From IMG/VR virus record IMGVR_UViG_3300042339_001064, positions 16,674-80,673 of that record: DNA of 64,000 nt; one strand, written 5' to 3'. The DNA comes from a virus (lineage: Duplodnaviria > Caudoviricetes). Below, one piece after another: positions 19,601 to 39,556 of this stretch. How positions within the stretch are numbered: position 1 is the stretch's first letter; the number at the start of each line of letters is the position of its first letter. Below the pieces are notes generated by a model. The model saw nothing but the letters and a program-made list of their open reading frames with translations, was not told the DNA's origin and did not search any database. A program made the position numbers and the translations under genes.

Positions 19601-21282
19601 ATAAAGTAGTAACTGTAGTTAGTATATATCCAGGTGAATATACTGATGGTAATCAAAGTTGGTTTGAAGGAAATGAAACATTTAAAATAAATATAGAAAG
19701 AGAAGGCATAACTTCAGGAATATTTGATAATAATGAAATATTTAATCCTATTAATAGTCAAAATAGTGATGAATATAGTAATTGGGAAGTTAATTTAGTT
19801 AATGATTTAGAAAATGAAACTACTGCAGAATTTGAAATAGAACCTACTGCAGAAGAAAGTGCAAGAGCAAAGTCTGTATTTGGTACTAAACCTGTATTAG
19901 ATCCTGTAACACAATTAATTACAGGTCAAGCTAATCAAGTTAATTTTGAAACTAGTTCAAATAATGTCTTAGAAGGATTTGAAGATGAAGCTGATAGTAA
20001 TATTGTTTCTTTAACTAGAGTAGCTTATGTTAAATTTAATATTACTTATGATGAGCAAAATAACAAACAATATGATGTAAGTATTTTTAATAATCAAGAA
20101 TTAAATAAAAAGTTTAATAATAAAATATTAACTGAAACAGAGGTTGAAAAACTTTTTAAAGATAATGGATTATTTTTTAGTAATAAAATAGAGTCTAATA
20201 ATGTTTATGTACTTAAAGATATAAATAAAAAACCAATTAATTCTTTTCAACAAGAAAATATTATATCTAAAATAACTATCCCTGAATCTAGTATATTAAA
20301 TAGTATTTATGCCAATGATTTAACTAATCAAGAAGGAGAAATAGTTGTATTAGATACAGAAAATAAATACAATAACACTTTAAAGACTGAAAAAGATTTT
20401 AGAAATAATGCAGCATTAGGAGTAGTAGTAAATAATGCTTTAGTAGCAATTATTCCTGCTAATAAAGGAAATACTAGGAATGCCCAAGTAAGAAATAAAT
20501 TAACTATTACTAAGGTAGGTAATACTTTTACTGTACAACCATTTAAAGTTAAAATTAAAAAAGTTAAAAAAGATGCATTTTTATTTAATAATCAACCTAT
20601 AAGAATAAATAACTTTTTAAATAAAGTTAATGGATTTAAATCTACTATTGCTTTTGTATATGAAGTAGATAAAGTTAAAAAATTAGTTAATCCTTTTGTT
20701 AATAGAGAAGTTTCTGAATTAAATATACCTGCAGATAATTTAACTAATAATGGAGTATTTTTAATATTAGAAAAAAGTGGAGAAAATCCTATTATTATTC
20801 CTTTGCAAACTCCTAAGTTAAGAGAATTTTTTGAAGGAACACAAGAAGATTTAGAAAATATTAAAACTATTCTTAAAACTAGTATTTCTGATGTATTTAC
20901 ATCACAAGATTTACAAGGAAATTATAATGTTTTTTTAAATAGACTTAGAACTGCTTCTGATAAAAATCCAATAATAAGTCAAATTTTTAAAATTATTCCT
21001 ACAAGTATTAATGAAACATCTACTAATACATCTCAAAAAATAAAATTAGAAAATTTAAAATTAAATTTTAATTTAGATAATATTATGGATTATTTGTGGG
21101 ATACTTTAATTACATTAAATGAAAATACTAGAGACTTTTATTCTGTAGATTTAGATCCTGAGAACTTTTATGCTAATAACTCTGTTATAATTGATTATGA
21201 TAAAAATATTATAATGGATACAAAAAATAATGATATTACATCAAATTCTATCTTTAATCAAGATAATGATGTTTATTGCTAA
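13690..21282 (+). CDS. Giant ejected virion protein with a PD-(D/E)xK nuclease domain
   Basis: 2530 aa. N-terminal 'FPDNMSQEDIRQAL' motif and Ala/Gly-rich membrane-like region. Nuclease motifs 'AGTMDIIAVGKDGKVDIIDLKT' (18748-18813) and 'KQLGFY'. The single Cys is the last residue. Confidence 0.7.
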   Translation: MPQVNHPKYGIINFPDNMSQEDIRQALIKLDQQGNKIIQPTQQKLMQQQPVAPKPVVKQEEEQTFYNQLTNKVSQGIKGVTNFFTGEEEQTPQQKISNQIPNVNQSKSVKGYGQSNIETPKPINTNAKASELANVGYRQGSSFEEQKSVIDDNYNKESEKVKNNYLALLRMAGEENPSLDQLPPNIKLLYNKDLQPITAKYNAEINKLKAQPLTNRKGLITDINQKNKRIEQLNEGIDSYTKKVENLSKQNEFLNLAKENNPLNKPSSIIPIVGIYNIYDTYSKRKAEINKAKKQLEGGKKDLQNLKNFNIDPIQILKNTPANELPQITASLEKPIKNLLESAKKFINLEDETTIRDLNKEQETNKIWTGNVIFDWFTNNVVKRERDVVKVKNYLSDTNAKGALENTTNYYYDKVEFSNAGSKNRLQQKIVEKGWDKDINAFDEKFNALLEDFPSLKNDSNKLMGTIQNLYSTPEQQQKVLSLIQDPDFQEIVTNNEALYNLNGARIGQSLKMFQAEKINELQALKVVKNLNERQQAAQDKLELRSKESGLFSADRVNYYLQQLDKGKSYIAEYGKQQVGSLATTINPESESARKLEYSADLWKAINFAQDEGNISLFDKGVEWVNLEADKNNNYQIGFNKLGQVVDVKANDMSISVKGSQRDLIENYFYSNSSELKKQAGDIYSMPGGTSAALGGTSKAIAVGIAEEAPTIAAEVAATIFTEGAAAPLLEATLLRLGAKGITAAKASRNFSKIAGQVINTTSTYAEVKHDVEKNYKEQGLDPGLLQVITTSGAISAVSQLTPGLENKYRQIGADFVADRVKKEANNVFVEDIPKVIKSLTDDLVDIKNPSVKDYLFNKELRNYAVARFSDRMGTVAKSFRKEGLQEASEETILEPLAQVLANAANASLTGNEEYNKETLRDLGFLDPETALIAGLTGGIMSSGIEVSKASSDLNETLAANFKKDNGLNTINALQAAIKDPNKFKSLLSTFIGNSSPSGNSLTQETYNNLIESFDTVKNNFEQTKKDFNLDNDFISKLDFENPLHKSILESVGVNLKNIESFNGSKTFDNVILNSELNKVNKEKVVASLAQSLGIPNNNNQLDLTPYLDENGFFDYNKYIEIIGKDTLDEITINNIKEYNNIVGREKSTKNLINLFNKNLGPIQSQFKAQYQTAIENNPELLNPQAGFVRSIYQQNLFNKLANQTRIDRINSLLEIGQAIDKDKELREELKTLNENNKSLDKSLTSITDTYTNGYFDAQENLNNLDEEFNEIDKQLQDKLNSYLSPGLIDNLSEEKENEIKNLIRIKSDKLKEIKKTHKEFNSRFNNGLKSQTLNRKALITDAEGKRTVKDVTIDKQLEESIKGDKERLTKIKEYRKIFANLINGQATKQDLDKLKKNNRLYNKQLLEETVLPYYVSFNKEELIQAFDNDPDLLLGMFSILEDMGYVGDIQNYKNVNLDTLTSVVTDGIIKLNYNISLINNNQENLINNFDQKNGALLVNNYIKTIEENSAKNQEQPAVETPTQSSDNVQDNVISLIEKNSKLKSDFDEDEITNNFYIINDKEYKRVTSVERDELNSNENLTAGANVGNFFDSLGRFIFGNLNVTKENSDVILQAQLDYFKNNGITFNLKKDSYVEMFNNLIEQRDSLIQEGFKFITEERVLYHAYDGLKFIGEDSTGINDNTIGVAGTMDIIAVGKDGKVDIIDLKTISDNKGKDTENLKDKETNGWSKQLGFYKTLLEKIPSVKVNNTKVFVSKVKYDISDFGNTISFLNFIEPKLNTINISKSALTLINNYLSIPNLVIDKPVEIITNTEAITEEEMPDYILEQQMLLAEDSNPELPNNEDFGPDEFQLSQATGVPVTEMEGIVPIIKTEVIDLQTDNNIFFTPVNQTKAENLEIEINKLISDKNKELRNLIVNTENVDQKINKITNKYNKLITKAKKELLILQGKSPIQKTKLVNELVTGDKIIIDNKVVTVVSIYPGEYTDGNQSWFEGNETFKINIEREGITSGIFDNNEIFNPINSQNSDEYSNWEVNLVNDLENETTAEFEIEPTAEESARAKSVFGTKPVLDPVTQLITGQANQVNFETSSNNVLEGFEDEADSNIVSLTRVAYVKFNITYDEQNNKQYDVSIFNNQELNKKFNNKILTETEVEKLFKDNGLFFSNKIESNNVYVLKDINKKPINSFQQENIISKITIPESSILNSIYANDLTNQEGEIVVLDTENKYNNTLKTEKDFRNNAALGVVVNNALVAIIPANKGNTRNAQVRNKLTITKVGNTFTVQPFKVKIKKVKKDAFLFNNQPIRINNFLNKVNGFKSTIAFVYEVDKVKKLVNPFVNREVSELNIPADNLTNNGVFLILEKSGENPIIIPLQTPKLREFFEGTQEDLENIKTILKTSISDVFTSQDLQGNYNVFLNRLRTASDKNPIISQIFKIIPTSINETSTNTSQKIKLENLKLNFNLDNIMDYLWDTLITLNENTRDFYSVDLDPENFYANNSVIIDYDKNIIMDTKNNDITSNSIFNQDNDVYC

Positions 21283-21307: not shown

Positions 21308-24300
21308 ATGGCTTGCTACATTAATCCTTTCCCTAATGAAATATCTCAAGATGAGTATTTATTAATTTTAAATACTAATAATTTATATGATACTTATTTA
21401 AATATTATTAATAATGGTGAAGAAGGTTTATTAGAATTTTTTAACATTAATAAAGCTGTAATTGATAAAGGAATAAATCAAATTAAAGAATTAAGAGATT
21501 TTAAAGCTGGAAAATTAACCTCAACAGATGTTATTATTAATAATCCTATTATTAATTATTTTATAAATAATAATATAAACTCTAATATACTTAAAACTTT
21601 AGATAAATCTTTTACAGAAATTTTTTATAAATTAGCTAATGAAAATAATAAACCTGTATCAGACTTTATTAATATAAATGATTTATTTAAATTACCTTAT
21701 CAAGAAGGAGTAAAATCTAGTAATGTTCTTATTAGATTTTTAGGTTCTTTAAATGGATATAAAAATATGTTATCTAATCAGTTAACTACAGGATTAAATA
21801 ATAATAATGAAGTTTTAACAGAGTATGATAAAATTTATATTCAACAAACTATTAACTATATTAACAGTTTAGGTGTTTTTAAAGATCTTAATTATCCTAT
21901 TATTTCTTTAGAAAATTTTAAAAATAATTTAAGATTAAAAGAATTAATTAATTATTTAGGAAGAGATGGTTTATTTAAGCTAGATAATCAATTAGTAGAA
22001 GATTTAAATAATGAAAAAGAAGATCTAGAAAATAATATTCAAATATATGAAAAAGATCCTTTAACAGAAGATCCTTCAGATAAAATATCTGCTAGACTTA
22101 AATTAATGCTTAGAGGTATTAATATGTATGATAGTTCTGGCAACAAAGTTATAAAATCTAATATTGAATTATTTTGGAAACCTGCAGATTTAATACAAAA
22201 AATGTTAATAGCAGTTTCTAATAATAATGTACATAATTTAACAATAGATCAAATTTTAGACAAATTAACAGTATTATCTACTCAAGAATTTTCTATATTA
22301 TCTCAACCTATATCTACATTTTTAAAAAGATTAAATGCTTTAAAAACAAATAATAATTTATTTAATAGTGCAGGTCCAGATATTTATACTGATTTATTTT
22401 TATATTTTCAACAATATCCTGTAGGTATTAAAGTTTTAGAAACTGAAACTACTATATTTAAAAATAAACCAATTTATATAAATGGTATTGAAGTTATAGA
22501 AGATATAGAAGTAAAAAGTTTAAAAATTCAAAATAAAGTTGATTATGTAAATGCAGGTTTAAATAGAGTACGAAAAGATATATTTAATAATCTTTTAAAT
22601 AGTAGCGAATTACAAAATAATTTTAATACTAAAAATGAATTAATATTAGCTTCTAATCAAAGTGTAGCTCAATTAGCTGAAATTATTGCAACTTTATTAT
22701 CACCGAGTCTTACAACAACTCAAAAAAATATTAAAGAACAAGTTTTTAATAAAATTAAACAAACAGATTTAAAAAATGGAATAAATTTTTTAACTGTTTT
22801 AGAAGGTATTATTAATGGTGATAATATATTAAACTCAAGTATAATTAATAAAGTTTATAATATTAATAATGATACATTATTTCCAGTACTTAGTCCTTCA
22901 GAATTAAGTGAAGAATTAAGTATTATTAATTCTAGCATTGCTGCTATTAAAAATGGAGTAGCTTATGAAGATACAGATTTTTATAAAAAGTTTAATGGAG
23001 ATATTATTAGTATGTCATTATGGGCAGACTATGTAAAAAATGCTAGTAATCCTTTAAGTTTATCTATATTTATTGGACATAAACTTGATGAAAATATTAA
23101 AGAAGAATATTCTGATTTTACACAAGCAGAGTTATTAGCTAATTTATTTAATGTTATAAGTTCTGGTAGTATCCCTACTCCAATTTTATCAGATAAATCT
23201 AATATTTATTTAATTGATAATTACAGTCTTAATCAAGGAGCTTTAAATCAATTAAATTTTAGACAAGATCCTATTTCATATTTTAAATATTTTATTAGTT
23301 ATTTAAAAATAGATAATGAATTAAATGAGCAAATTAATAATGGTATTAATATTGGAAAAAATATTGATAAAGCTATTGCTAAGCAAAAATTAATTTTATT
23401 TAATCCTGCATTTTATGAAATTGCAGATAATGAAGAAGTATTAGAAATTTATAATACTTATGTTAATGGAGATACTGAAAATAAACAAACTGCTGAAAAA
23501 CAACTTATAGATATTATTAATAAATACCAAACTAAATTAGGAAATGATTTATATCAAAAATTTATTGATACTAAATTAATTACTTATAATGATGATTTAG
23601 AAGGATATTATATTAATAGTAATTTATTAGATAAAACAATTTATTTAAAAACTAAAGCAGGAGTAGAGCAATTAAAAAATAATATTAAAGAAGTTGCTGT
23701 AAAATACTATGTTTTAAATACACAAGTTAAATTACTTTCAGTAGGTCATTCAGGTTTCTTTAAAGAGAATGATGAGCAAAAAAGAGTTAAAGCTATTGCT
23801 GCAAATTCTAAAAAAGTAAATTTAAATGCTACTTATAAAAATAAACAAATTATAACTAAAAATAGTGGTAAAAGAATTATTTTAAAAGACATAGAAAATC
23901 CCGTAGTAAATAAAATAGCTGAAGATTTTTTTCTTCAAAGATTAAAAGAAGAAAAGTTTTCTAATGAAGATATTCTTAAAAAAATGGCTAATTTGTTTTC
24001 AAATTATACTTTATTAGATGGTACACCTGTCTATTCTTTAAACAGTGCTAAATTAGATAAAATAAAAGAAGAATTTAATATTGAAGCAGCACCTTTATTA
24101 GAAAAAATAAATACTTTAAAATTAGAAAATAATTTAGAAGAAGTTGCTTTAATTCAAGAAGATTATAATAAAATTTTAACTAAATATTCTAATTTAGAAA
24201 AAGAAATTAAATTCTTGCCTACTAAAAAAAGTAATACTACTGATGCTTCATCTGTATCCTCTTTAGATTTTTCTAAAAAATATCATGTAGGATTAAATAT

Positions 24301-27300
24301 GTATTCTGATAACCAAGAAGAAGCTTATAATGCAGAATTAAATGGTAATTATTTAAATAAGTTTACAGAAAATAACTTTAAAGTTATTAAAAATATAGTA
24401 TATACTAAAACTAAAAGTAAAAATTCTGATATATTACTTCCTTACATGGAAAAAACATCTACAGATAATTTTACTGCACAAAGAGTATTTTTAGGAGAAG
24501 AGCCTAATTTATACCAAGCTATGATTGGAAAAATGTTTGGTTATACTTTTAATGAAAAAAATGAATCATGGACTTATAATCCAAATAATGCAATAATAGA
24601 TAAAATTGTTTATGAGAGTGCTGTTAAAGCTGAAATGCCTGTAAACCAAAATGGAGATATTGTTGTATTTGATTTATTAAAAGAAATAGAAAATAAAAAT
24701 ATTAAAAGTTTAGAAGATGTAAATAATTGGAAACCTGAACAAAATTTTGAAGAAAATTATGTTATAGATATTCCTATTACTGAAGATAGATTACAAGTAG
24801 AAACTCCAGAACATTTAGAAGGTCAAGCAGATATAGGCACACAAATTGAAGGACTTATAAGTAATGGTATAGATGCAGACTCTGAATTTGTAATTAATAA
24901 TAAAACATTTAATGGGCTTGAATTAACAAATTTATTAAATCAATTAAGAGTTAATTATGTAGACAAAGGAGAAAATGATTTATATAATGAATTTTTTAAA
25001 GAAGATAGAATTTATGATTTAGTTGCTTCATTATATAATGATAGAGAATATTTAAATTTAGAGACTTTAACTCCTGAAAAATTACCCGATTTATTAAGTA
25101 ATCCTCAATTTGGATTAGCTTTAGTTTCAAAAATACAATCTTTAATAAAACAAAATGTAGTTAAAACAAAAATTAATGGTATTCAATTTTTTAATGGAGT
25201 TGTTGCTAATGATAAAAGTTTAAATATATTAGTAGAAGATGTTATAGATGCAAATGGTAAAACTATTAAAAAATTAATATTTGAAGTAGCAGTACCTGCA
25301 TTTAGTGAAAACATGTTTAAAGCAGCATTAAATTCTGAAACAGGAAAGTTAGATGTAAATTTAATTCCAGAAGAATTAAGAGAGTTTGTTGTATATAGAA
25401 TACCTACAGAAGCAATGTATTCTATGTTTGCAGTTAGAATTAAAAAATTATTACATCCTTCATCAGGACCTATTATATATATGCCAGAAGGCCCCACAAA
25501 TATTGCAGGTTTTGATATGGATATTGATAAACTATTTGGTATTGTAAAAAATTATTATTCAAAAGATAATAAATTAATTCCTATTTCTTATTCTTTAGAA
25601 AAAGATAGTAATATTAATTTTAAAGAATGGATTAAAGAAAATATTACTGATACTGACCAATTAACTTTAAATGATTTATTTTTAGAAAAAAGTAATTTAA
25701 TTGAAAAAAATCCAGATTTATTTAAAGAAAGATCTGATATTAAAAAATTAAAAGAAGAAAAAAATAAAATAATCTCTGATTTAGAAAAAGATTTAATAGA
25801 AGAATATGATCTTTCTGGAAAACAATTATCTACAGCACTTTCAAGACAATTAAAAAATTATCCAAAATATTTAGAAATTAAAGAAACTCTTAATACTTTT
25901 TATGACTCTATTAAAATAGAAGAAAATGAAAGTTTAAAAAATTCTGTAAAAGAAATAAATAAACAAATAAATGATATTTATGCTATTTATAAAGATTCTT
26001 GGAAAAATTTAAATGTTGCAGCACAACTTAGTACTAGTCAATATCAAAATCTTTATTTAGATATTATTAAAGGGGTTGTTACTAATGAAAAAAGTGTAAA
26101 TGAATATATTACAGGAAATGGATTTCAAAGATTAGAAGATATAAATACTGATTTAGAAAATAGAAATACTTCTAAAGAAAGTAAAAAAGATAAATTATTA
26201 AGAGCTCAAAATCCTTATAGAGATGCTAATTTAGTTAACTCTTTAAATACTTTTAGAGCTATTATGTCAGGTGCACAAAATATTGGACCTGCAGCTATTT
26301 ATAACCAATTTGTAGCTTTAAATCAATTTTTAAAGAATTTTGGAATTGAAAGTACAGTAGGATTTAATGTTAAATCAATTAATTTATTAAGTAAAAATCA
26401 AAAAGATACTGAACAATTTAATATATTTAAAGGTTTAAATAATTATGTAACTAAATCTGGGTTAAAACCAAATATGGCTATTGCTGAGTTATTAGCACAA
26501 GCAGTAGATAATATTAAGAAAGATTTATCTGTTCCTTTAAATTTACAAAAACAATTAGTAGGATTAAGATCTTTATTATATATTACAGGTTTAGATGAAA
26601 ATATTGTTGATAGAATATTTACAGATTATCCTCTAGTAGATAAAATTATTAAAGAATCTATTGAATCAGATGATATTAATAGATATAAAAATAATATATT
26701 TAAATATAATTTATATGATTTATCAGAAAAACCTAGTAAATTTATATTTTTAGATAAAGATGAAAAAATAAACATTAATTTAGAATTATTAAATAAAAAA
26801 TTTAAACCAGGTAATTTAGTATCAGACATATTATCTTCTGATATTTCAGAAGAAGAAATAGTTTATTTTTTACATGAAATGTTAGAATTAGCTAATGAGT
26901 TATCTGATATTATAAACACTATTAATTATTATCAAAAAGGGTTAGGTAAAAACTTTGCTAGTTTAATTTTTTCTTATGATAAAACAAAGCAATTATTAAA
27001 TTCTACTTTATCAAATAACTTTAGTATTGATTTGTCAAATAGTTTTATAGAATATAAACTTCAAAAGTTAGTTGAAATTACAGAAAATATATATAGTAAT
27101 TTTAATATTAATTTAGAAGATCCAAATTTTAATTTCTTTAAACAATATTTTCAAAGACTTAATAATTCAAAATATTTAGGATATTTATTTAATGCTAATT
27201 TAAGTTCTAACTTATATTTAAATTTATTAGCAGAGTTTGGTTCTGCAGAAAATCTTAAAAAAGCATATTTTAAAGAAGTTTCTGATTTAAAATTAATTTT

Positions 27301-30300
27301 TGGACAAAATACTATAATAGAAAAAACTGGAGATAATTATGTAAAATCAGATGTGCAAAATTTAAATTTAAATATTTTAAATTCTATTATTAGATTTGTA
27401 GATAATAATCCTTTCTTTGAAGAAAATATAAAAAATATAACAATTTTAAAACAACTTTATCCTTTTGATATACAATTTTTAGGCCAATCAGAATCTTTTA
27501 ATAGTTCTTTGAATCCTAAAAATATTATTGATATAATGTCAATAGATAATAAAACTTTATATTACGGAGGTAATCAAGATATTATTACTGAAGATAATGT
27601 ATTTAGTGCACAAGAAATTACTCAAAAGTTATTTTTTATTAATATGGTTCAATCAGGATTATTTAGTGGAAAAAACAATAAAGGAAGAAGTAATGTATTT
27701 GATTTGTTATTTTTAGATAATATTATTTTACAAAACTTTTTATTATATATTAATAAACCATATTCTTATTTATTAAATAATTCAGTAGTAAACCCAGAAA
27801 TACTTAGAAATAGTTCAAATGTTTTAAGTGCTTATACTGATTTTATTCTTTTAAATAATCCAGAAGGATTTAATAAATATACTCGAAGTTTAGAAGATAC
27901 TTATTTATTAGATAATAATACTAAAAAATTAATTAAAAATATATTTGTTAATAGTACCCCTATAACATTAAATAATAATTATTTAGATGTTTATGTTATA
28001 GATAAATCTATTATACTTCCTACAGATGATCCTAAAAAATTAGTAAAATTAGGTAACTTTTTAAATTCTACTTATATTACTTTTAATGATAACGGATCTA
28101 AAAAATTATTTAAATTAGTATATAGTTTAGGTAATAATTTATTATATAAAAATCTAGGAATTATTGGTGGTAATTTATTATCAAATGAATTCAGTGGAAA
28201 AATAAATCCTATTGCATTTAATTTTTTAGATGAAGTTATAAGTAATTTAGGTATTACTCGTTCTAATATAGAAAGTAGTGATGTAAATCTTGCAAATCAA
28301 GTTATTGGTACTTGGAGTAAACCAGCAATTCAAACTCCTGTAAATACAACTGTTGAAACTATATCTACACCTCAAAATCCTATTAAGATTTATTCTGATG
28401 GATCTGACATAAAAGGAACAGGTAAAGTAGGTTTTGGTGCTGTATATGAATATAATAATAAAGAGTATGCTTTAACAGGCACAGAAGAAGGCTTTGAAGT
28501 TAAAGATTTACAAAAAATGTTTCCTGAAGCTAAATTTAGTAATCCTACTATGGAAATGTTAGCTCTTGTAAGAGTACTTCAATCATTCTCTAATAATTCT
28601 GAACATCTTTCTATTTATCAAGATTATAAGGGTGCTGTAAACTATAATGAATTATGGAACTACTCTGAAGGATCTCAGCAAAGAGAGTCAAAACCTTGGA
28701 ATGCTAAAGAAAGTTATATCAAATATTTAGTTGCACAAGCTGTAGATGCTATAAAGAAAATTGAAACTAACGGTGGTTCAGTAAAAATTAACTGGGTAAA
28801 AGGACATGCTGGTAATAAAATGAATGACAGAGCTGACTTTTATGCTAAAAGTAGAGAAAACTTTAATAATTTAACAGAGCCTCTTAGTAAAACATTTATT
28901 GAACCTACTACTCAACCATCTACTGATGTTAAAACTAAACAAGAAGAACAAAGTAAATTATTTCAATTACCTTCAACAGAAGGTCAAGTAGCATCAGAAA
29001 AAACTATTAGAGATTTAGCTGCAAGAATGTCTGATAGAATAGGTATGCCTGTTAAGTTTGAATCTGATAGAACTAAACAATATAAAGGTAAAATTGAAAA
29101 TAATATTGCTTATGTTAATTTAGCTTATGCTACATTAGATACTCCTATACATGAGATATTAGGTCATCCTATTATTAGAGCAATTAAAGGTAAAAATAAA
29201 GGTTATGTAGTAAAAGGATCTACTATAACAGATAAAGCTACTAATAAAACTTATATTGTTAAAGAAGTAACTGAAGATTATGATTTTGTCATAGAAGAAA
29301 ATGGTAAAGATATAACTGTTGATAGTTCTACTTTTGAATGGAATACTAATGCAATATCTCAATTATACCAAAATCTACTTAAAGAACTTGAATATGGTAA
29401 AGGTAAAGAAGTATTAGATAGGATTAAAAGGGATTACAAAGAGTATGAAAAAAATTTAACAGCAGTTAAATCTGAAATAAACAGAATACAAAATATTATT
29501 TCTAAGGGTTATCTATACGAAATAGATGGGAATCTTTTTAACAAAAAAGATGCTATAGAATACTCTATAGATAATAATTATGATTTTGAAGAAGAAATAG
29601 AATTTGATTCTTATGCAAATTTAGAAATTAACTTATTAAGACAACAGCAAATATTAGAAGAAAAAAATTCTGTTTCTAAAAGTAATGTTGCTGAAGATTT
29701 TATTATAGATGATAAAGAAATAAGAATTGTTTATAATTTAGAAAAAGTTCAAGAAGAAGCTATTGTAGAACTTCTTGGTATGATGACTGCTGAAAAACTT
29801 GATAATGTTAAAGACGGTAAATTAATATCTTTACTTAAAAGATTACTTAAAGAAATGAAACAATTTATTCGTTCTTTAATTAATCAGAAAGAAGTTGAGA
29901 TTGATAAATTACCTGATAATATGACTATTAATGATTTAGCTGATTTATTAGCTTATTCTAATAGTAAACTTATATTACCTGGGTATGAAGTAGAATATAC
30001 TACTCCTGATAATATGAAGTTTAAAACTTATCAAGAAGCTAGTAATCATATTAGTCAATTAGCTAAAAATGTTAAAGATGTTGATTTAGATAATATTTCT
30101 TTATTAAAAGAAAAACCTAAATATAAAATAGGAGATTATTTTGGACAATATGAAAAAGGATTTGTAGAACAAGAAGGTCTAAATAAAATAGAAACACAAG
30201 AAGAAGCAGACTATTTAAATTCAAAAGAGTATAGACTTCAAGAGCCTGATACAATAAAAAACTTTATAGAAAAAAACAAAGAATACGAACAATCTAAAGA

Positions 30301-31627
30301 AATTATAGAAGAATGGAAAAAAGTAAATAACATTCAATATAATCCTGAAGAAATATATTCAAGAGGTCAAGAATTTGTATCTGTACTAGGGGCTTACTCT
30401 GATTTTGATGTTAATCTTATGATGCAGAATCTTCTTCAACATATAGAGGATAATGAAAAAGCTGGAGGTAAATTTGTTATATCTGCATTTACTAAACCTG
30501 TTGATAAAACAATTGGTCACTTAGAAGGTGGTGGAGGAAAAATTAAGTTTAAAATATACCCACAATCTAATGATATATTATGGGCTGCTAATACTGATGT
30601 TTATAGTGGTAGTGTTTGGGATGCTAGTGAAAAAATTAATAAAGATAAAAAATCTGAATTACTTGGAGTTAGTTATACTAAATATCCTTCTTTATATAAT
30701 GTGGGTACTGTACAACCTAATTTAGCTTCTGTTGTAGATAATTTAGCACATCATCATAATGAACTTGGTATTGCTTTAACAGGTAATAACTTTAGATTAG
30801 AATATGATGAAGATATTCCTTATACTACTAAAAAGATTATTGAGGGTATAAATAAAATATTAGACCAAAAATATGGCAAGTTAGTTAACCCTGAGATTAA
30901 AAAAGTTACAATTATACCTAATGAATTTGAATTTTGGCAACAAGATATGAATGAGGATGGAGGTTTAGATAGATTTAGAATAAGTATATTTAAAAAAGAT
31001 GATAAATGGTTTGAAGAATTTTTTGATACTTATGGAGAATCTGAAAGTGTTAGAGAAATAGATTATAATGAAGTAAAATTAAAATTTGATGAAGCTCTAT
31101 CTTCTAATTCAACTTTAACAAGAGGTAGAGGTATTCAACCAACTCAAACTAAAGATAATTTAAAAGAAAGTATTGAGAGTGTTAAGAGTAAAGTAACTAA
31201 TGAAATTGAAGATTCTGATGGAATAGGTTCTTTTGGTTATGATAATAATGGTATTAGATATGTTAAAAGTGATGATGGTACTTATTCTAAATCATCTGAT
31301 AAATTTAAAACTTGGGTAGAAATAACTGAAGAAGAGTATGAAAGTAATAAACCTAAAAGAGATATTAAACAAAAAGAATACATATCTCAAGCATTAATTA
31401 ACACTAAAATAGCAGCATTAAAAGAAGTAGCTAAAAAATATCCTAGAAGTTTAATTAGAAGTGAAGTTAAACCTGTTAAACCTTTTGATACTAATTCTTA
31501 TGAACAATTTAATGATGAATTACCATTTCAAAAAATACTTTCTACTGAAGATAAATTTTTTATTCAGTATATTAAAGAAGAAGCACTTAAAAATAATATA
31601 GATCTTTCAAAAAATAATTGTAAATAA
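21308..31627 (+). CDS. Virion-encapsidated DNA-dependent RNA polymerase (crAss/phi14:2 gp66-like) with C-terminal RNase H and zincin-like domains
   Basis: 3439 aa. 'VVYRIPTE' is followed by catalytic 'AGFDMDIDKLF' (DxDxD at 25514-25528, residue ~1403), matching the position and form of the crAss-like vRNAP DFDID motif. RNase H at ~28382-28855; HEILGH at 29150. Confidence 0.85.
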   Translation: MACYINPFPNEISQDEYLLILNTNNLYDTYLNIINNGEEGLLEFFNINKAVIDKGINQIKELRDFKAGKLTSTDVIINNPIINYFINNNINSNILKTLDKSFTEIFYKLANENNKPVSDFININDLFKLPYQEGVKSSNVLIRFLGSLNGYKNMLSNQLTTGLNNNNEVLTEYDKIYIQQTINYINSLGVFKDLNYPIISLENFKNNLRLKELINYLGRDGLFKLDNQLVEDLNNEKEDLENNIQIYEKDPLTEDPSDKISARLKLMLRGINMYDSSGNKVIKSNIELFWKPADLIQKMLIAVSNNNVHNLTIDQILDKLTVLSTQEFSILSQPISTFLKRLNALKTNNNLFNSAGPDIYTDLFLYFQQYPVGIKVLETETTIFKNKPIYINGIEVIEDIEVKSLKIQNKVDYVNAGLNRVRKDIFNNLLNSSELQNNFNTKNELILASNQSVAQLAEIIATLLSPSLTTTQKNIKEQVFNKIKQTDLKNGINFLTVLEGIINGDNILNSSIINKVYNINNDTLFPVLSPSELSEELSIINSSIAAIKNGVAYEDTDFYKKFNGDIISMSLWADYVKNASNPLSLSIFIGHKLDENIKEEYSDFTQAELLANLFNVISSGSIPTPILSDKSNIYLIDNYSLNQGALNQLNFRQDPISYFKYFISYLKIDNELNEQINNGINIGKNIDKAIAKQKLILFNPAFYEIADNEEVLEIYNTYVNGDTENKQTAEKQLIDIINKYQTKLGNDLYQKFIDTKLITYNDDLEGYYINSNLLDKTIYLKTKAGVEQLKNNIKEVAVKYYVLNTQVKLLSVGHSGFFKENDEQKRVKAIAANSKKVNLNATYKNKQIITKNSGKRIILKDIENPVVNKIAEDFFLQRLKEEKFSNEDILKKMANLFSNYTLLDGTPVYSLNSAKLDKIKEEFNIEAAPLLEKINTLKLENNLEEVALIQEDYNKILTKYSNLEKEIKFLPTKKSNTTDASSVSSLDFSKKYHVGLNMYSDNQEEAYNAELNGNYLNKFTENNFKVIKNIVYTKTKSKNSDILLPYMEKTSTDNFTAQRVFLGEEPNLYQAMIGKMFGYTFNEKNESWTYNPNNAIIDKIVYESAVKAEMPVNQNGDIVVFDLLKEIENKNIKSLEDVNNWKPEQNFEENYVIDIPITEDRLQVETPEHLEGQADIGTQIEGLISNGIDADSEFVINNKTFNGLELTNLLNQLRVNYVDKGENDLYNEFFKEDRIYDLVASLYNDREYLNLETLTPEKLPDLLSNPQFGLALVSKIQSLIKQNVVKTKINGIQFFNGVVANDKSLNILVEDVIDANGKTIKKLIFEVAVPAFSENMFKAALNSETGKLDVNLIPEELREFVVYRIPTEAMYSMFAVRIKKLLHPSSGPIIYMPEGPTNIAGFDMDIDKLFGIVKNYYSKDNKLIPISYSLEKDSNINFKEWIKENITDTDQLTLNDLFLEKSNLIEKNPDLFKERSDIKKLKEEKNKIISDLEKDLIEEYDLSGKQLSTALSRQLKNYPKYLEIKETLNTFYDSIKIEENESLKNSVKEINKQINDIYAIYKDSWKNLNVAAQLSTSQYQNLYLDIIKGVVTNEKSVNEYITGNGFQRLEDINTDLENRNTSKESKKDKLLRAQNPYRDANLVNSLNTFRAIMSGAQNIGPAAIYNQFVALNQFLKNFGIESTVGFNVKSINLLSKNQKDTEQFNIFKGLNNYVTKSGLKPNMAIAELLAQAVDNIKKDLSVPLNLQKQLVGLRSLLYITGLDENIVDRIFTDYPLVDKIIKESIESDDINRYKNNIFKYNLYDLSEKPSKFIFLDKDEKININLELLNKKFKPGNLVSDILSSDISEEEIVYFLHEMLELANELSDIINTINYYQKGLGKNFASLIFSYDKTKQLLNSTLSNNFSIDLSNSFIEYKLQKLVEITENIYSNFNINLEDPNFNFFKQYFQRLNNSKYLGYLFNANLSSNLYLNLLAEFGSAENLKKAYFKEVSDLKLIFGQNTIIEKTGDNYVKSDVQNLNLNILNSIIRFVDNNPFFEENIKNITILKQLYPFDIQFLGQSESFNSSLNPKNIIDIMSIDNKTLYYGGNQDIITEDNVFSAQEITQKLFFINMVQSGLFSGKNNKGRSNVFDLLFLDNIILQNFLLYINKPYSYLLNNSVVNPEILRNSSNVLSAYTDFILLNNPEGFNKYTRSLEDTYLLDNNTKKLIKNIFVNSTPITLNNNYLDVYVIDKSIILPTDDPKKLVKLGNFLNSTYITFNDNGSKKLFKLVYSLGNNLLYKNLGIIGGNLLSNEFSGKINPIAFNFLDEVISNLGITRSNIESSDVNLANQVIGTWSKPAIQTPVNTTVETISTPQNPIKIYSDGSDIKGTGKVGFGAVYEYNNKEYALTGTEEGFEVKDLQKMFPEAKFSNPTMEMLALVRVLQSFSNNSEHLSIYQDYKGAVNYNELWNYSEGSQQRESKPWNAKESYIKYLVAQAVDAIKKIETNGGSVKINWVKGHAGNKMNDRADFYAKSRENFNNLTEPLSKTFIEPTTQPSTDVKTKQEEQSKLFQLPSTEGQVASEKTIRDLAARMSDRIGMPVKFESDRTKQYKGKIENNIAYVNLAYATLDTPIHEILGHPIIRAIKGKNKGYVVKGSTITDKATNKTYIVKEVTEDYDFVIEENGKDITVDSSTFEWNTNAISQLYQNLLKELEYGKGKEVLDRIKRDYKEYEKNLTAVKSEINRIQNIISKGYLYEIDGNLFNKKDAIEYSIDNNYDFEEEIEFDSYANLEINLLRQQQILEEKNSVSKSNVAEDFIIDDKEIRIVYNLEKVQEEAIVELLGMMTAEKLDNVKDGKLISLLKRLLKEMKQFIRSLINQKEVEIDKLPDNMTINDLADLLAYSNSKLILPGYEVEYTTPDNMKFKTYQEASNHISQLAKNVKDVDLDNISLLKEKPKYKIGDYFGQYEKGFVEQEGLNKIETQEEADYLNSKEYRLQEPDTIKNFIEKNKEYEQSKEIIEEWKKVNNIQYNPEEIYSRGQEFVSVLGAYSDFDVNLMMQNLLQHIEDNEKAGGKFVISAFTKPVDKTIGHLEGGGGKIKFKIYPQSNDILWAANTDVYSGSVWDASEKINKDKKSELLGVSYTKYPSLYNVGTVQPNLASVVDNLAHHHNELGIALTGNNFRLEYDEDIPYTTKKIIEGINKILDQKYGKLVNPEIKKVTIIPNEFEFWQQDMNEDGGLDRFRISIFKKDDKWFEEFFDTYGESESVREIDYNEVKLKFDEALSSNSTLTRGRGIQPTQTKDNLKESIESVKSKVTNEIEDSDGIGSFGYDNNGIRYVKSDDGTYSKSSDKFKTWVEITEEEYESNKPKRDIKQKEYISQALINTKIAALKEVAKKYPRSLIRSEVKPVKPFDTNSYEQFNDELPFQKILSTEDKFFIQYIKEEALKNNIDLSKNNCK
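28382..28855 (+). other. RNase HI domain embedded in the vRNAP ORF
   Basis: IYSDGS (D), NPTMEMLA (E), IYQDY (D), WVKGHAGN (H) and NDRADFYAK (D): the full RNase HI catalytic set in the correct order. Confidence 0.85.
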
Positions 31628-31636
31628 AATAAATAT

Positions 31637-34600
31637 ATGTCATTAGCCTGCGATTTAAATATAAATATTGCCAAAAGAGGTATTTTAAAAGGAATTTCTA
31701 ATAAATATATTCCTGAAGAATATGAAAATAATCAATCTGATTTTAAAGATGATGAATTACAAATACCCCTTAAAAATAAAAATAAAGATGAAGTAGCAGA
31801 AATATTTAAACCTATTTTATCAACTATAGAAAAAGACTATAAAGGTAATATAAAAGCAGAAATAGTTAAAAATTCTATACTTGATCCTTTTTATATAAAA
31901 TTTAATGTTAATAGAAATTATATTCTTGACCAGTTACAACTAACTGTAAAAGATATAAATGAACTTCAAACTAAAGAAACTATTAATACTAAAATTGTAG
32001 ACCCTTTGTTAAATGTACAAAAAGGGCTTACAGATCCCTTAATTAGACAAAAATATTTTTCTGATGGAGATACTACTACAGATAAAGAAGTATTAACTAA
32101 GATTGCAAATTCTAGTCACCCTTTAAGTGGATTAGCTAAACAATTAATTCCTTTTAGTAAAGGAATAAAATTTAATTTATTACCTATTAATTATATTAAT
32201 GTTAATAATAATAAATCTTCTGGAGTATATAAAAGTTTTGGAATAAATAATGAAGAAATAATTGAAATTGCAGAATTTGCAAAGTTTAGAGGTTTAGGGT
32301 CTGAACCTACAATTATTCATGAAATTCTACATGGATTAACTTTTAATTGGTTAGATTCTGTAAATCAATCAGATCCATTATATAAAGAATTTGAAAGACT
32401 TTATAATGAAACAATTTCAAAAATAGGTATTGCTAATAATTATGGTTTAACTAAAATTGAAGAATTTGCAGTAGCTTTATTTACAGATGAAGAATTTATT
32501 AATAAAATTAAAGAATTACCTTCAGATAATCCTACTAAATATGTTAATTTATTTGAAAATATATTAAATACTTTATTAAAAGTATTTAATATAACTGATT
32601 CTAAAAGTACTTTATATACAGATGCATTTGCAATTGTTTCAAATATAATTAATATTCAAAAAGAATTAGAAAACATTTTTAATATTCAAAAAGAAATAGA
32701 AGAAGCTTTTTTACCTACTCTTGATGAATTTGAAAACTTACAAGATGATATAGATAATTATTATATTGATGATTATTCAGAATATACACCTGAACTTCCT
32801 GAAGATACTTTTCAAGAAAATGTTTTAGAAGAAAAAACTGTCATAGAAAGTAAATCAACTATAAATCCAAATTTAATTCCAGATAATATTGAAGAACAAT
32901 TTAATGAGTTTGAATCTTTAAGAAATAAAGATGCAGAAACTACTGAAGAGTTTGACAAACAAATTTTATATTCTTTAATATTACCAAATGTTAGTAAAGA
33001 TAAATTCTTTGAAATATTTTCTCAAAACAATCCAGAAGAATTTAATAAATATAGGCAAAAAGAAGTTAAAAGAATTATTAATAACTTTGCAGAAAAATTT
33101 GGAATTACTATTGAGCAAATTAATCAATACCAAGATAGATATGTTTTAGCTAATAATAAAACATTAAGTTATAATGGTGTAGCTAATTTAGCAAATAAAA
33201 CTATTAAATATTTAGAAGGAGATGAGGCTGCATTAACAGAAGAAGTAGCTCACTTTATGGTAGCTATGTTACCTAAAACAAGTCCTGAGTATGTTAATTT
33301 AAAAAATTATATTAGTAGAACTCCTGAATATCAACTTTATTATGAATCTTACTTAGAAGTTTATAATGGAGATGTAGATAAAACTGAGGAAGAAATAATG
33401 GGTAAGGTTGTAGCTAATAGTTTATTAGGAGTTACAGAAAATGTACCTTTATCTTTAAAAAGTCTTATTACTTCAATTTTAAACTACATTAATAACTTTT
33501 TTAATCCAGAGTATAGAAAAGCTTTTCAAAGAAGTGTAGATAATATTAATCATTTATTTTTTACAGAAAATTTTGATACTAATTTTTCTGAAGCTAATAT
33601 AACTTTTGATGAATTATATAGTTTAAAATTTACAACTTCTAATGATGAAAAAGTATTTAATTCTTCTACAGATCAAATATTAAATAATATTTTACAAAAT
33701 TTAAAAAACCAAAGACAAAGGTTTATTGAAAATAAACAAACTGATTTAATTAAAAGTATTGATACTTTAATTGATATAATTACAGAAAAAGATTCAAATA
33801 TTGATAATTCTGATAGAATTATTAATTATATACAAATGTCTTTATTAGAAATACAAAAAGTTGAACAATCTTTAAATAATTTTGAAAAAAGTGGTATTTT
33901 ACAAGATTTAGAAAAGAAAAATTTTAATAACTTAACAAAAGAACAACAAGAAGCTCAAACTCAAGAAGATAGAGCTAACCATTTACAATATGTAGCTGCA
34001 GCTATTACAACTTTACAAAATTTAAATTCATTAATTACTTTAATTGAATGGAATTTTAAAGGATTTAATAATACTTTTCAATCTTTATCAGATTATAATA
34101 AAATTATAGATACTTTACCTGATTCTAATGAAAATAAAATATTTTCAGAAGCATTAAAATTAACAAAAGCTACATATAGAGATGCAAAACTTGGAACTAT
34201 AAAAGGAGTTTATCAAGATCTTTCTCAAAAATTATTAGATGTAACTTTTAAAACTTTAAATACTCAAGATCAAAAAAACTTTTTAGAATTAACACAAACA
34301 AATTTAACTCCTAATGTTAAAAAACAAGAAGATGTAAATAATGATATATCTCCTTTAGGTACAGTTAAAGATCTTATTACAGGAGAATTTAATATATCTT
34401 CTTTTAAAGAAAATATAATGCCTTTAACTTTCCAAAAAGATGTTTATTTAAGATCTGTTGACAATGCTAATGCAGTTTTAAGGCAATTTGCATTAATGGC
34501 TTCAGCAAAAGATGTCCATGAATATAATTTATTTCAAGAAAAATTAAATCAATTAGGTGAATTTAATGAAACATGGCTTTCAGCAAAAGATGAAAAAGGT

Positions 34601-37600
34601 AAACTTACATTTAAGTTATTGCAAAAATATAATTTTAAAGTATTTAAAAAAACTTTATCTCAAAAAATTATTAAAGATAATTTAGCAACTATTATAAATC
34701 AAAATGTTGTATTAGATGAAGTAGAAAATAAAGATCCTAAAATATTAAAATCTATTATTAATAAAAAATATAATTCGCCAAATGCAATAAAAGATGATAT
34801 TACTCAATTATATATTAATAAAAAAATATCAAAAAGTTTATTTTTATTTTTAAATAATTATATTAATGGCTACGAAACATTATATACTTTAAAATTAAGT
34901 GAACAAAATAATTTATTATCTAATAATAATCAAAATATATTACAAAAATATAAAAATGATTATATATCTCAATTAGAAAATAATTTAGCAAATTTAAATT
35001 TTAATAAAAAATCTTTACCTTATTTTAATAATAAATTTGCTTTTACTGAAAATACTATTAGTGCATCACAACTAGCAAGTGTTGTTCAAAATATTATAGA
35101 TAATAAGAAAGCTGCTTTAATTAACAAATTTGTAGTAGTTCCTAAAACTATAAATGGTTTTGAAAATCCTGTTTACACAAATCAAATGGCTTATGTAGAA
35201 GGATTAATGAATTATTTTAAAAATAATATAGGGTATTTACAAGATATTGAAGGTGAAATTAAAACTGATAATATTAATTTTTTAATGTTAGGTGATGAAT
35301 ACTTTTTTAATTTATCAGATAAAAAATCTTTAGCAGGAATTAATTTTGTAGACAATGATTATATTAATTTAGAAAAACTTGCTCAATCAAATAATCCTAA
35401 AGAAAGAGAAATAGCAACATTAAAATTAACTGCTATTGAAAAAATAAAACAAGATAATTTAAAACATAATACGCCTTCTAATGATTTAGGAGGAGTATTA
35501 ATAAATAATAGTGCTGCATTTTTAAGTAATTCTAAAGAATATAGAGAATTTTATAATAGAATATTTAGAATGGCTTTTCCTTTAGCTTTAACATTAGCAT
35601 CACCAGTTAATCCATTAGCTAGTGTTATGTTATATCTTACTTATATAGGAGCATTAGATACTTTAATTTATAAACCTTTTTATTTTTTAAAAAATGATAC
35701 AGAATCTAATTTATTAAAAAGAGCATATAATGCTTGGAAACTAAGTTTATCAGAATTTTTTAACAGAGATTTAAGAGAAAAAAATATAGAAAATAATGCT
35801 GAATTAGAAAAAGAAGTTGCAAAAGGTTATAAAAAAATAATTTCTAACTTAATTGAAAATATAAAAAATAAATTAAATAAAAATAGAATTAATGATAATA
35901 TTCTATTATTAGGAGAATATAAAATTCCTAAACCTTTTGAAGTTGAAAGAAATAATAGATTATTATTATCTACAGATTTTTTATCTAACCAAAAAAGCAT
36001 TACTCAAGCTAGATATAATTATGAAACAAATATAAGATGGGAATCTTGGATTAGAATGACTGCTGATTATAATGAAACAAGGGCAGGTGTAACTAATTCA
36101 AATATTATTAATACAATTAAAGATAGGTATTGGTTTAATAAATTTTTTAAACCAACAAAATCATTAAGTGCTTTAAGGTTTACTTTAGGAATAATATCTA
36201 GTAAATTACTAAAAGGAAACATACAATCAGCAATAATGAACTTAACTATTGGTCAATTTGGAGTATTTTTACATACAAATCCTAGTACTTTTGCTAAAAG
36301 TGTTATTAATATGTTTACTCATAATACTGAAATGTTATATATGGGTACTAATTTAAACAATGTTGTAAATAGTTTTATAGGTAATTTTGGGAATCCTTCT
36401 AATTCAACTACTAGATTATCTTTTTTTGATGCTTTAAAAAATATGTTTACAGGAAGAGATACTAATGTAGCAAAATATAATAATAATCTTATAAAGCATA
36501 TTTCAAAAAATTTAAGAAAAAATAGAGGTACAGGTTTTACAGAATTTGATGAAAGTGAATCTATCTTAACAAGGGAATTTGGTTTAACTAATACTCAAAT
36601 GCTTAATAATCTTGGTGAAAAGTTTATTGAAGAAAATACAATATTTCAATATTTAAATAGTAATCCAATTATAGATGAAAATGGAAAGCCTATAAAAAAT
36701 TTAAAAAAATATTTAAAAATTGAAAATGGTTTAATAGTTTTAGATAGAACTAAATTGCCTAAGAATTTATATTTAAAAAATACTACTAATTTAGCTTATA
36801 AAAATTATTATAATTTAGATATAGATTCTAATGTTAATATTGAAAAAGCTAGTCCTAAAGATTTAGGAATTAACCCTTTAACTGATGTAGAACTAAATGA
36901 ATTTTTAAATATTACTATGTCAAATGATATTTCTAATTTAATGGAAAAATCTCAAGGGGTGTATAATATTTTTAATAAAGCTTATTGGAGAAATACTGGA
37001 ATAGGATTAATATTATTTCAATTTAAAGATTATGTATTAACTTCATTAACAAATACTATAGGTTCTAGAAAAATTAAAAATAATTTTACTAGTTATGAAA
37101 CAAGTATTTTAAATTCTTTAACTAAGGCTTTTGATAGAATGGCTATTTCAGGTTATAGATTTATTGATAAAGATGCTAAATTTAATAAAGATGTAGATCA
37201 AAATTTATTAATTTTAAATAATGTATCTAAAATACAATTTTTTAGAGAATTAAATTTTTTAAGAAATCGTTTAGTTTCTTTTTTAACTCAATCTGAAGGT
37301 AAAATAAATAAAAAATTAAAAGAATTAGCTAATAATAATGAAAAATTTAGAAAAGATACAAATAGAAAAACAAGTTCTAATATTTTATTAAATTTACCTA
37401 TAAATTGGTATTTAACAAATATTAAAGATAAACCAATTGATGATGTTAATTTTAAAATATCTGGAGAATTTAATTTAGATACTAATAATCCTAATTTTAA
37501 TAAACAACTTAATTATATTAAAAGTTTAATTGATAAAAAATTTAAAACAAAAGAAAATTTTACTCAAGCTGATTTAGATATATTAACTAAATTTGATATT

Positions 37601-38515: not shown

Positions 38516-38896
38516 TTAATAATACTCATCTTTATAGTCATCAAAGCAATCATCAAACTCAGCATAGTTTGTAAAAAGTTCTTCCCCTGGCTCAATATTT
38601 TTAAGTGCTATTGTAACATCTTTAGTGTTATCTAGATTAGGGGTATAACTATGATTTAAAAAATTTGATAAATCACAAGAAGAATAATAATAATTATCTT
38701 CTATCCAAGCATATTTATTAAAATATTCTTGTTGAGCATCGGGCATTTGTTTTACTTTATCTATAGAAATTTTAATATCTACTCCTTCTTCAAACTTCCA
38801 TACTATAGAATCTTTTGGTATAAATTCTGTAGCAAATAAACCTAACCCCATTTTAGGATTAGTAGCTACTTTAACTTCTGTTTTAAATAAAAACAT
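38516..38896 (-). CDS. SET-domain protein (lysine methyltransferase fold)
   Basis: GLGLFATEFIPKD, FLNHSYTPNL and IALKNIEPGEELFTNY are canonical SET motifs; no post-SET region. Confidence 0.85.
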   Translation of the reverse strand: MFLFKTEVKVATNPKMGLGLFATEFIPKDSIVWKFEEGVDIKISIDKVKQMPDAQQEYFNKYAWIEDNYYYSSCDLSNFLNHSYTPNLDNTKDVTIALKNIEPGEELFTNYAEFDDCFDDYKDEYY

Positions 38897-38917
38897 ATTT
38901 TATTTTATTAATTGTGA

Positions 38918-39553
38918 TTAAATATTTTCAGTTCTATAAATATAATAAGGACTATTTGCATAAGTCATATCAACATCTTCACTAGACATTCTCGGATTAT
39001 TAATTTTTATTTTAGGAGGAGATTCTTTACTATAAGGTTTAATAAAATCTGCATTGTGCCATCTTAATAAATTATTAGGGTGTATACAAAAATTACCACA
39101 ATCCATTTCAATAAAATGAAAGCATTTACTGTCTAAATCTTCTGAATAGCCTACATTAATTATATTAGGATCAGAAACATAGTCATCAATAGTGAATAAG
39201 TAAATCCCACTTCTCCATTTACCATCTCTACAAAATATATCCACTCTTTTATGTTGTAATAATTTAAAACAAGTGGTAGCAATAGCATTAGATTGGCAAT
39301 CCCAACTCTCTAATAGAGAAAGTCTTTTTTGTTCATTATCAGATAGCACATCATAGTCATCCTTATGTTGAAATGCTGATATAGGCATATTCCACATAAT
39401 AGCTCCTATATTAGACTGAAAATGAAATAACATAGGATAGTTTATAACAGACTTAACTCCAAATATAAACCCTGGTAAGTCTTCCTCTAGCCCTATAAAT
39501 TCTTTTCTAATTTTACATTCTATATAAGGTGTATTTGCATTTAATTGTGCCAT
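38918..39553 (-). CDS. Conserved phage hypothetical protein (MAxLNAN-P family)
   Basis: 211-aa ORF with motifs 'MAQLNANTP', 'MPISAF', 'WDC' and 'HPNN' recalled from uncharacterised aquatic phage proteins. Confidence 0.55.
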   Translation of the reverse strand: MAQLNANTPYIECKIRKEFIGLEEDLPGFIFGVKSVINYPMLFHFQSNIGAIMWNMPISAFQHKDDYDVLSDNEQKRLSLLESWDCQSNAIATTCFKLLQHKRVDIFCRDGKWRSGIYLFTIDDYVSDPNIINVGYSEDLDSKCFHFIEMDCGNFCIHPNNLLRWHNADFIKPYSKESPPKIKINNPRMSSEDVDMTYANSPYYIYRTENI

Positions 39554-39556
39554 ATT

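Follow-up and report, generated by a model that had tools for sequence, protein, structure and literature searches.

In a freshwater crAss-like phage, a type 1 RNase H domain, predicted to be catalytically active, is not an integral part of the crAss-like virion RNA polymerase that carries it but an interchangeable cargo cassette in a hypervariable slot at the C-terminal end of that protein. The domain lies in a 64,000-nucleotide stretch (positions 16,674 to 80,673) of the IMG/VR virus record IMGVR_UViG_3300042339_001064 (Duplodnaviria; Caudoviricetes). We call this whole stretch the window, and all positions given below refer to it unless another source is named. The carrier is the product of a single open reading frame (ORF), ORF B, in which a polymerase body is followed by the RNase H cassette and then by a module denoted here protein X (Table 1). 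crAss-like phages rank among the most abundant known viruses, and the polymerase that they inject was discovered only recently.

Turnover of the C-terminal slot

The exchange of cargo is seen directly by comparison with L041, a metagenome contig whose DNA is 97.95% identical to the window over 21308-28297 (6,990 nt). The similarity ends at position 28297, and a second block, 96.7% identical, matches the window at 32042-35287. Between these flanks, L041 has a linker, a P-loop kinase of the AAA_33 family (E 6.3e-17), two more modules as well as a small ORF. The kinase and the other modules stand in place of the RNase H and protein X.

The 12 closest orthologs of ORF B likewise share the body up to about residues 2320-2430, after which their tails diverge, and none of them has an RNase H. 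Identity amounts to 91% over residues 1-2341 for P0192, 86-87% for P0193 and P0194, 65% for P0195, 43-50% for seven more and 26% for P0203; two of the proteins, P0201 and P0202, have a PIF1-type helicase in the divergent tail. A search with the polymerase core returned 39 other proteins, and the Pfam family PF00075 of RNase H was listed for none of them. This search and that with the RNase H module described below each cover the nearest candidates that share sequence words with the query. PF00075 was also found in none of five related phage records, four of which are at least 90% complete, the control being its detection in 9 of 14 known genomes. As the RNase H is missing from L041, from orthologs that are 91, 86-87 and 65% identical and from the five phage records, the polymerase does not need it.

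P0192 to P0200 and the L041 protein (L041:1-8454) all end in a peptide of the EEDFSS(V/I)PPC(V/I)N type, whichever cargo precedes it. ORF B ends in ...SKNNCK instead, because protein X supplies its end.

The carrier protein

A profile built from residues 1101-1701 of ORF B and 17 relatives matches the PDB chain 6vr4_A ('DNA-dependent RNA polymerase', 2,194 aa) over chain residues 1078-1633, with an E-value of 1.1e-89 and a score of 305 bits. This chain is gp66 of phage phi14:2, and the match bears out the proposal of a first-pass annotation of this DNA that the carrier is a crAss-like virion RNA polymerase. In addition, residues 1162-1410 align with the 'putative RNA polymerase' of Bacteroides phage crAss001 (28.7% identity, E 8e-20). 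The three Asp residues of the catalytic metal-binding motif and the Gly that precedes it are invariant in 18 of 18 aligned polymerases, while Met replaces the Phe of the DFDxD-type motif in the lineage of ORF B. By homology, then, the carrier is a true crAss-like, gp66-type virion RNA polymerase. Passages of the preprint on gp66 state that this protein enters the host together with the DNA (10.1101/2020.03.07.982082). By homology, we infer that ORF B is packed in the virion and follows the same route.

Positions 72-142 of the polymerase-core profile, which correspond to about residues 1170-1245 of ORF B, also match calmodulins (E 3.5e-6 and weaker). These matches may reflect an EF-hand-like stretch or an effect of composition.

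The RNase H domain

The domain scores 53.9 bits against PF00075 when taken alone and 48.5 bits within the whole protein, the curated cut-off being 25.8. It also matches phrog_531 ('Rnase H') with an E-value of 1.5e-20. A phmmer search of PDB sequences gave 37 distinct sequences at E<=0.01, the best at 8.9e-6, and all of them are bacterial RNases HI or variants thereof. Residues 2340-2530 were modelled with AlphaFold2 from an alignment of 26 sequences, namely the domain region and 25 relatives. The model has a mean predicted local distance difference test score (pLDDT) of 92.0 and a predicted template modelling score (pTM) of 0.88. Its elements follow each other as β1-β2-β3-(extra helix)-αA-β4-αB/C-αD-β5-αE, which is the RNase H order with one additional helix. 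E. coli RNase HI is the top Foldseek match of the model (E 3.5e-9). In VIA-align, the archaeal RNase HI 2ehg superposes with a Z-score of 14.0 and a root-mean-square deviation of 2.8 Å over 132 residues, and the E. coli, human and HIV RNases H reach Z-scores of about 13. The structure prediction suggested in the first-pass annotation as a check of the domain thus gives the RNase H fold.

As for the active site, D2364, E2416, D2439, H2500 and D2510 are the same in all 26 aligned modules, and the motifs around these five positions are kept in all 61 relatives found in the search described below. The HMMER pairwise alignment places D70 of E. coli RNase HI two residues ahead of D2439. We take D2439 to be the probable equivalent of D70, because it is invariant and directly follows strand β4 in the model. 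The domain is a type 1 RNase H by its family match and predicted fold, with an active site that looks intact. The earlier description of a catalytically complete RNase HI agrees with the Pfam match, the fold and the five invariant residues, the activity itself being predicted.

Distribution of the RNase H module

A search with residues 2330-2540 among proteins of 1,891-6,019 aa yielded 61 others that have the module, with 50-77% identity. The carriers are 2,127-5,752 aa long. Outside the module they align to ORF B only around the polymerase motif (23-41% identity), over short stretches or nowhere. In 39 of the 61, the module is located 895-1,502 aa past the polymerase motif and 7-209 aa short of the C-terminus; the distance from motif to RNase H in ORF B is 958 aa. 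The module precedes the polymerase motif in 7 carriers, and in the 15 others there is no strict motif in the same protein. The IMG/VR loci mostly have the first of these arrangements, 10 of 13 comprising the polymerase motif followed by the RNase H and a short end that bears cysteine.

When 1.84 billion representatives were searched exhaustively, 42 matched at E<=1e-30, of which 27 are longer than 2,000 aa and 15 are fragments or small genes of 191-1,311 aa. Ordinary free-standing RNases HI come next, at only about 30-40% identity. Among GenBank phages, 34 records match the domain. They are stand-alone genes from phages of Staphylococcus, Vibrio and other hosts, with less than 30% identity, and none of the 34 records has a crAss-like name. 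The module is widespread and, judging from its conservation, under strong constraint. It is also the commonest slot module seen in this analysis, with its 61 other protein clusters.

We examined the neighbours of the module in 12 carriers, chosen because precomputed lists showed extra domains in them. In this selected set, NADAR adjoins the RNase H in six proteins, and ART-PolyVal is found in three, Kinase-PolyVal in one, a superfamily 1 (SF1) helicase in three, an AlkB-like oxygenase in one and HD_4 in one. In the unselected list, NADAR is present in 10 of the 61 carriers. NADAR reverses DNA ADP-ribosylation. Of note, the IMG/VR locus L034 has a 54% identical RNase H module at its positions 10001-10537, and under translation table 11 there is no plus-strand ORF of at least 300 aa around it, so that a reassigned stop codon is possible.

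Cassette boundaries and linkers

The cassette comprises about 190 residues bounded by Thr/Pro/Gln-rich linkers, 'KPAIQTPVNTTVETISTPQNP' ahead of the domain and 'IEPTTQPSTDVK' after it. The first-pass annotation had noted both, and both are real. The G+C content at third codon positions (GC3) is 14.0% in the cassette versus 5.4% in the polymerase body, and no other 193-codon window of ORFs A to C exceeds 11%. Over all windows of the six large plus-strand ORFs, it falls at about the 90th-95th percentile (the 90th being 13.5%), which makes its composition weak evidence of a recent transfer.

The DNA of the downstream linker (28898-28936) is identical in L041 at 36 of 39 positions and codes in the two for IEPTTQPST(D/S)VK, and these 39 nt are the only DNA that the window and L041 have in common inside the replaced region. 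A 15-nt core of this linker, ACTCAACCATCTACT (28910-28924, coding for TQPST), has a single copy in the window, immediately behind the RNase H. The same core is found three times in L041, between modules, and in three further loci out of 41 (Table 1). This TQPST-coding stretch may be a joint for in-frame module exchange. In run X13, the loose end of one contig before 28905 reads '...GQVLGTWSK', the sequence that precedes the cassette in the window, joined directly to the TTQPST linker. This is a lead towards a cassette-less variant, from one contig in one run, and the 28 letters of the loose end had no match in a scan of metagenome contigs.

Assembly support

A 2-kb stretch across the domain was traced to 24 listed runs, of which 23 have the label lake water and 5 may be the source, and 17 of the runs contain half or more of its sequence words. 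An independent contig of 6,539 nt from run X7, not one of the possible sources, covers 27000-28924 with zero differences, thereby bridging the joint between polymerase body and RNase H as well as the entire domain. The 90% identity cluster of the ORF B protein rests on four contigs.

On the other side of the domain, public lake-water contigs end at 28924-28932 and others begin at 28895 or 28961. In three of the four runs examined, contigs break at 28895-28932, just past the domain, and no single Logan contig in the four runs bridges the joint between RNase H and protein X (28924-28961). Joints of which one side measures 21 letters (27994 to 30292) were too short to be considered. We read the breaks as a branch of the assembly graph at the repeated linker; as such they probably count neither against the joint nor as positive support for it. 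The joint with protein X is supported by the four-contig cluster, by the order of modules in the relative P0088 and by the cysteine pattern over ORF B. Indeed, the only cysteines among the 3,439 residues are C3 and C3438, which speaks for a cassette integrated in its carrier. As regards the chimeric assembly that the first-pass annotation had named as a possible refutation, the X7 contig speaks against it at the joint with the polymerase body.

The protein X module

The HEILGH and EEAIVE motifs of protein X are invariant in 15 of 15 relatives. Across 26 IMG/VR loci, protein X either stands alone, with about 700-1,100 aa, or opens another giant protein, or is located upstream of the polymerase, and in none of the 26 does its ORF contain an RNase H. 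In P0088, an RNase H at residues 13-176 is directly followed by a protein X module, with 41% identity. The RNase H is thus placed where polymerase and protein X meet, irrespective of the gene in which it is found.

For protein X, no Pfam or PHROGs match exceeded the threshold. Its AlphaFold model is poor (pLDDT 61, pTM 0.38), and Foldseek returned no match to it at E<=0.001, the weak rows being to minigluzincins (E 0.09-0.25). A tblastn search of GenBank phages was without a match, and all Atlas matches were below 0.9. The two motifs are reminiscent of the zinc motifs HExxGH/EExxxE in M49 dipeptidyl peptidase III. Protein X may be zincin-like, as suggested by its HExxxH and EExxxE motifs and by the remark, in a passage of the gp66 preprint, that gp65-type neighbours have a zincin-like domain (10.1101/2020.03.07.982082). 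At most it is a candidate for the kind of metallopeptidase that could cleave a polyvalent protein into its units.

Possible roles of the RNase H

What might such a cassette do? The reading that we favour, at about even confidence, is that the RNase H is an accessory, conflict-related effector that is delivered with the DNA and acts on RNA:DNA hybrids. If the giant polymerase travels in the virion and is ejected along with the phage DNA, as gp66 is, a finished RNase H would be at hand as soon as infection begins. At or close to the incoming genome, it would degrade the RNA of RNA:DNA hybrids. Most probably, the hybrids that it removes would otherwise harm or mark this DNA, whether they originate from host defence or from the phage's own early transcription. 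It would not be a required part of the transcription machinery. We favour this reading because the module is dispensable, its slot turns over fast and its neighbours are typical of polyvalent proteins. ORF B itself combines unrelated enzymatic domains in one ORF, namely the polymerase, the RNase H and the HExxxH module, as polyvalent proteins do. The portions of the survey of such proteins available to us list the N4-like virion polymerase among the phage-type domains (Iyer et al. 2017, PMC5512222).

Several points weigh against this reading. It relies on the association with neighbouring modules and on the turnover of the slot, and the delivery into the host on homology to gp66. The position of the RNase H at the polymerase end in 39 proteins is equally compatible with a link to transcription. 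In ORF B the domain is followed by 923 residues and not by a short tail, a topology unlike the common form, and in the four runs examined no single contig bridges the joint with these residues. A recent donor was not found, the best nucleotide identity of the cassette to any fetched locus being 71.5% over 509 nt. 

The first-pass annotation had suggested that a tethered RNase H could clear hybrids, process primers or counter defence; each of these roles is possible, and the neighbouring modules favour the last. A rival reading is that the RNase H is a working partner of the polymerase. The enzyme would clear R-loops or long hybrids left by the gp66-type polymerase and would keep early transcription and later replication going. 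We consider this possible but doubtful. It fits the preference of the gp66-type enzyme for single-stranded templates in vitro, as well as the C-terminal position of the module in most carriers and IMG/VR loci and its covalent linkage in ORF B. However, polymerases that are 86-96% identical in protein do without the RNase H, as do the five related phage records, and the GenBank matches to the domain are all outside phages with crAss-like names. The carriers in which the module precedes the polymerase motif, or has no strict motif beside it, do not fit such a partnership either. Besides, an RNase H acting on nascent hybrids would destroy the transcript too. A working partnership is thus left unsupported by the closest polymerases.

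A more specific form of the conflict-related role is that the ejected RNase H is an enzymatic counter-defence factor, traded between phages as an in-frame cassette by means of the TQPST linker, that cuts the hybrids of RNA-guided or reverse transcriptase-based immunity. Its targets would be the R-loops of CRISPR RNAs (crRNAs) or guide RNAs, or the template-product hybrids of retrons or defence-associated reverse transcriptases (DRT). So precise an assignment seems unlikely to us.

It is more improbable still that the RNase H serves replication, by trimming transcripts of the polymerase into primers for the family-A DNA polymerase or by removing Okazaki primers. The trimming of transcripts into primers has its model in ColE1 RNA II and RNase H. 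The family-A polymerase of the window (51201-53231, minus strand) contains a 3'-5' exonuclease domain and lacks a 5'-3' one, and no RNase H or flap nuclease was found at E<=0.001 in the 30 other ORFs scanned in the 64-kb window, both of which would suit such a role. Nevertheless, the five relatives of like genome layout manage without the RNase H, the genome is visible only over 64 kb, the few virion copies present at entry are poorly suited to bulk primer removal, and the host RNase HI could serve.

Lastly, that the fusion is an artefact of assembly or gene calling, or the domain a decaying inactive remnant, is scarcely credible: although public contigs break just past the domain, they do so at a linker sequence repeated in other contexts, and the flawless X7 contig, the 24 runs, the four-contig cluster, the conserved order in P0088, the invariant catalytic residues and a terminal-cysteine pattern that spans the entire fusion all speak against it.

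The C-terminal end of the injected polymerase is a slot at which phages with about 98% identity elsewhere swap complete enzymes. Its contents include the RNase H, a P-loop kinase and helicases, with NADAR and ART modules in relatives. The conserved linker and the contig breaks at that place suggest a mechanism for in-frame domain shuffling. This slot is therefore a place to look for the tools of the first minute of infection and for new counter-defence enzymes. The RNase H module is easy to assay, and if its target turned out to be a defence intermediate, it would represent a new class of enzymatic anti-defence factor. Full-text searches of the literature gave no description of the cassette, with the proviso that Yutin et al. 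2018 and the supplements of surveys could list the domain.

Genomic context

The window has a G+C content of 25% and a crAss-like layout. Its plus strand has a series of very large ORFs, and its minus strand a block for replication and nucleotide metabolism that encodes the family-A DNA polymerase, helicases, both ribonucleotide reductase subunits and a Sak4-like protein. ORF B is the middle one of three consecutive giant ORFs of 2,530, 3,439 and 2,252 aa, a block that is syntenic with L001 and L041. According to a passage of the gp66 preprint, the three neighbouring giant proteins are fused in some phages (10.1101/2020.03.07.982082). ORFs A, B and C are nearly cysteine-free, and their few cysteines oppose each other across each gene boundary.

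Residues 1664-1743 of ORF A show a weak match to a PD-(D/E)XK nuclease (E 6.8e-4; 20.1 bits, under the 22-bit cut-off), and P0222 aligns to the same stretch. Further upstream, 514-4401 has a weak match to the C-terminal domain of the crassvirus muzzle protein (PF25729, E 4.8e-4, below the cut-off), in agreement with a crAss-like virion module in that region. Downstream of the giant ORFs, three small auxiliary-looking genes are located on the minus strand at 38516-40429. Their products are a SET-domain protein (E 2.7e-13), a protein resembling spore photoproduct lyase (E 5e-22) and one that matches phrog_3704 'ferredoxin' (E 1.4e-34).

Table 1. Features of the giant-ORF block, in window coordinates except for the last row, in which positions are those of the loci named
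Feature	Position	Strand	Remarks
ORF A	13690..21282	+	2,530 aa; neighbouring giant protein; sole cysteine C2530, the final residue
ORF B	21308..31627	+	3,439 aa; comprises polymerase body, RNase H cassette and protein X module, in this order
Virion RNA polymerase body	21308..28297	+	aa 1-2330; homologue of phi14:2 gp66
Catalytic metal-binding motif DMDID	25514..25528	+	aa 1403-1407 (D1403-M-D1405-I-D1407)
Upstream hinge and linker QVIGTWSKPAIQTPVNTTVETISTPQNP	28298..28381	+	aa 2331-2358
Conserved RNase H cassette block	28325..28903	+	aa 2340-2532; 50-77% identical in 61 other giant proteins
RNase H (type 1) domain, catalysis predicted	28382..28855	+	aa 2359-2516 of ORF B; 158 aa, in frame
Predicted catalytic residues	D2364 28397-28399; E2416 28553-28555; D2439 28622-28624; H2500 28805-28807; D2510 28835-28837	+	
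Linker IEPTTQPSTDVK	28898..28936	+	after the RNase H domain, aa 2531-2542
Protein X module	28946..31624	+	aa 2547-3439; HEILGH 29150-29167, EEAIVE 29753-29770
ORF C	31637..38395	+	2,252 aa; neighbouring giant protein; sole cysteine C5
Copies of the 15-nt linker core	L041 7033-7047, 7924-7938, 8395-8409; L009 4233-4247, 5046-5060; L004 7828-7842; L016 3615-3629		module boundaries

Comparison with known systems

The closest counterpart of the carrier is gp66 of phi14:2 (PDB 6VR4), whose body is homologous to that of ORF B and whose gene likewise sits between two other genes for giant virion proteins. The DxDxD motif occupies a nearly equal position in both. It reads 1361-DFDID-1365 in gp66, according to the part of the preprint that concerns this motif (10.1101/2020.03.07.982082), and DMDID in ORF B. 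In contrast to ORF B, the 2,194-aa chain of gp66 has no RNase H, whereas ORF B adds both the RNase H cassette and an HExxxH module of about 900 aa.

Polyvalent proteins resemble ORF B in that a single polypeptide, believed to enter together with the DNA, combines many enzymatic modules (PMC5512222), and the sister proteins that have the same RNase H module also have ART-PolyVal, Kinase-PolyVal and NADAR. In ORF B itself, no PolyVal or LPD Pfam domain was detected, at E<=0.01 for the whole protein or at E<=1 for its parts, and the Atlas leads to LPD23 and ART-PolyVal clusters scored only 0.78-0.85. Neither 'RNase H' nor 'crAss' occurs in the main text of that survey, its supplements aside.

Compared with E. 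coli RNase HI and Sulfolobus tokodaii RNase HI (2ehg), the phage domain has the same predicted fold (Z-scores of 13-14) and the same five types of active-site residues, and at the place of the basic protrusion of the E. coli enzyme it has an insertion bearing Trp and Lys. Unlike bacterial and archaeal RNases HI, to which it is only 18-26% identical, it is cysteine-free and has an extra helix between β3 and αA (model residues 57-65). Moreover, those enzymes stand alone, whereas the phage domain is embedded in a giant protein of the virion type.

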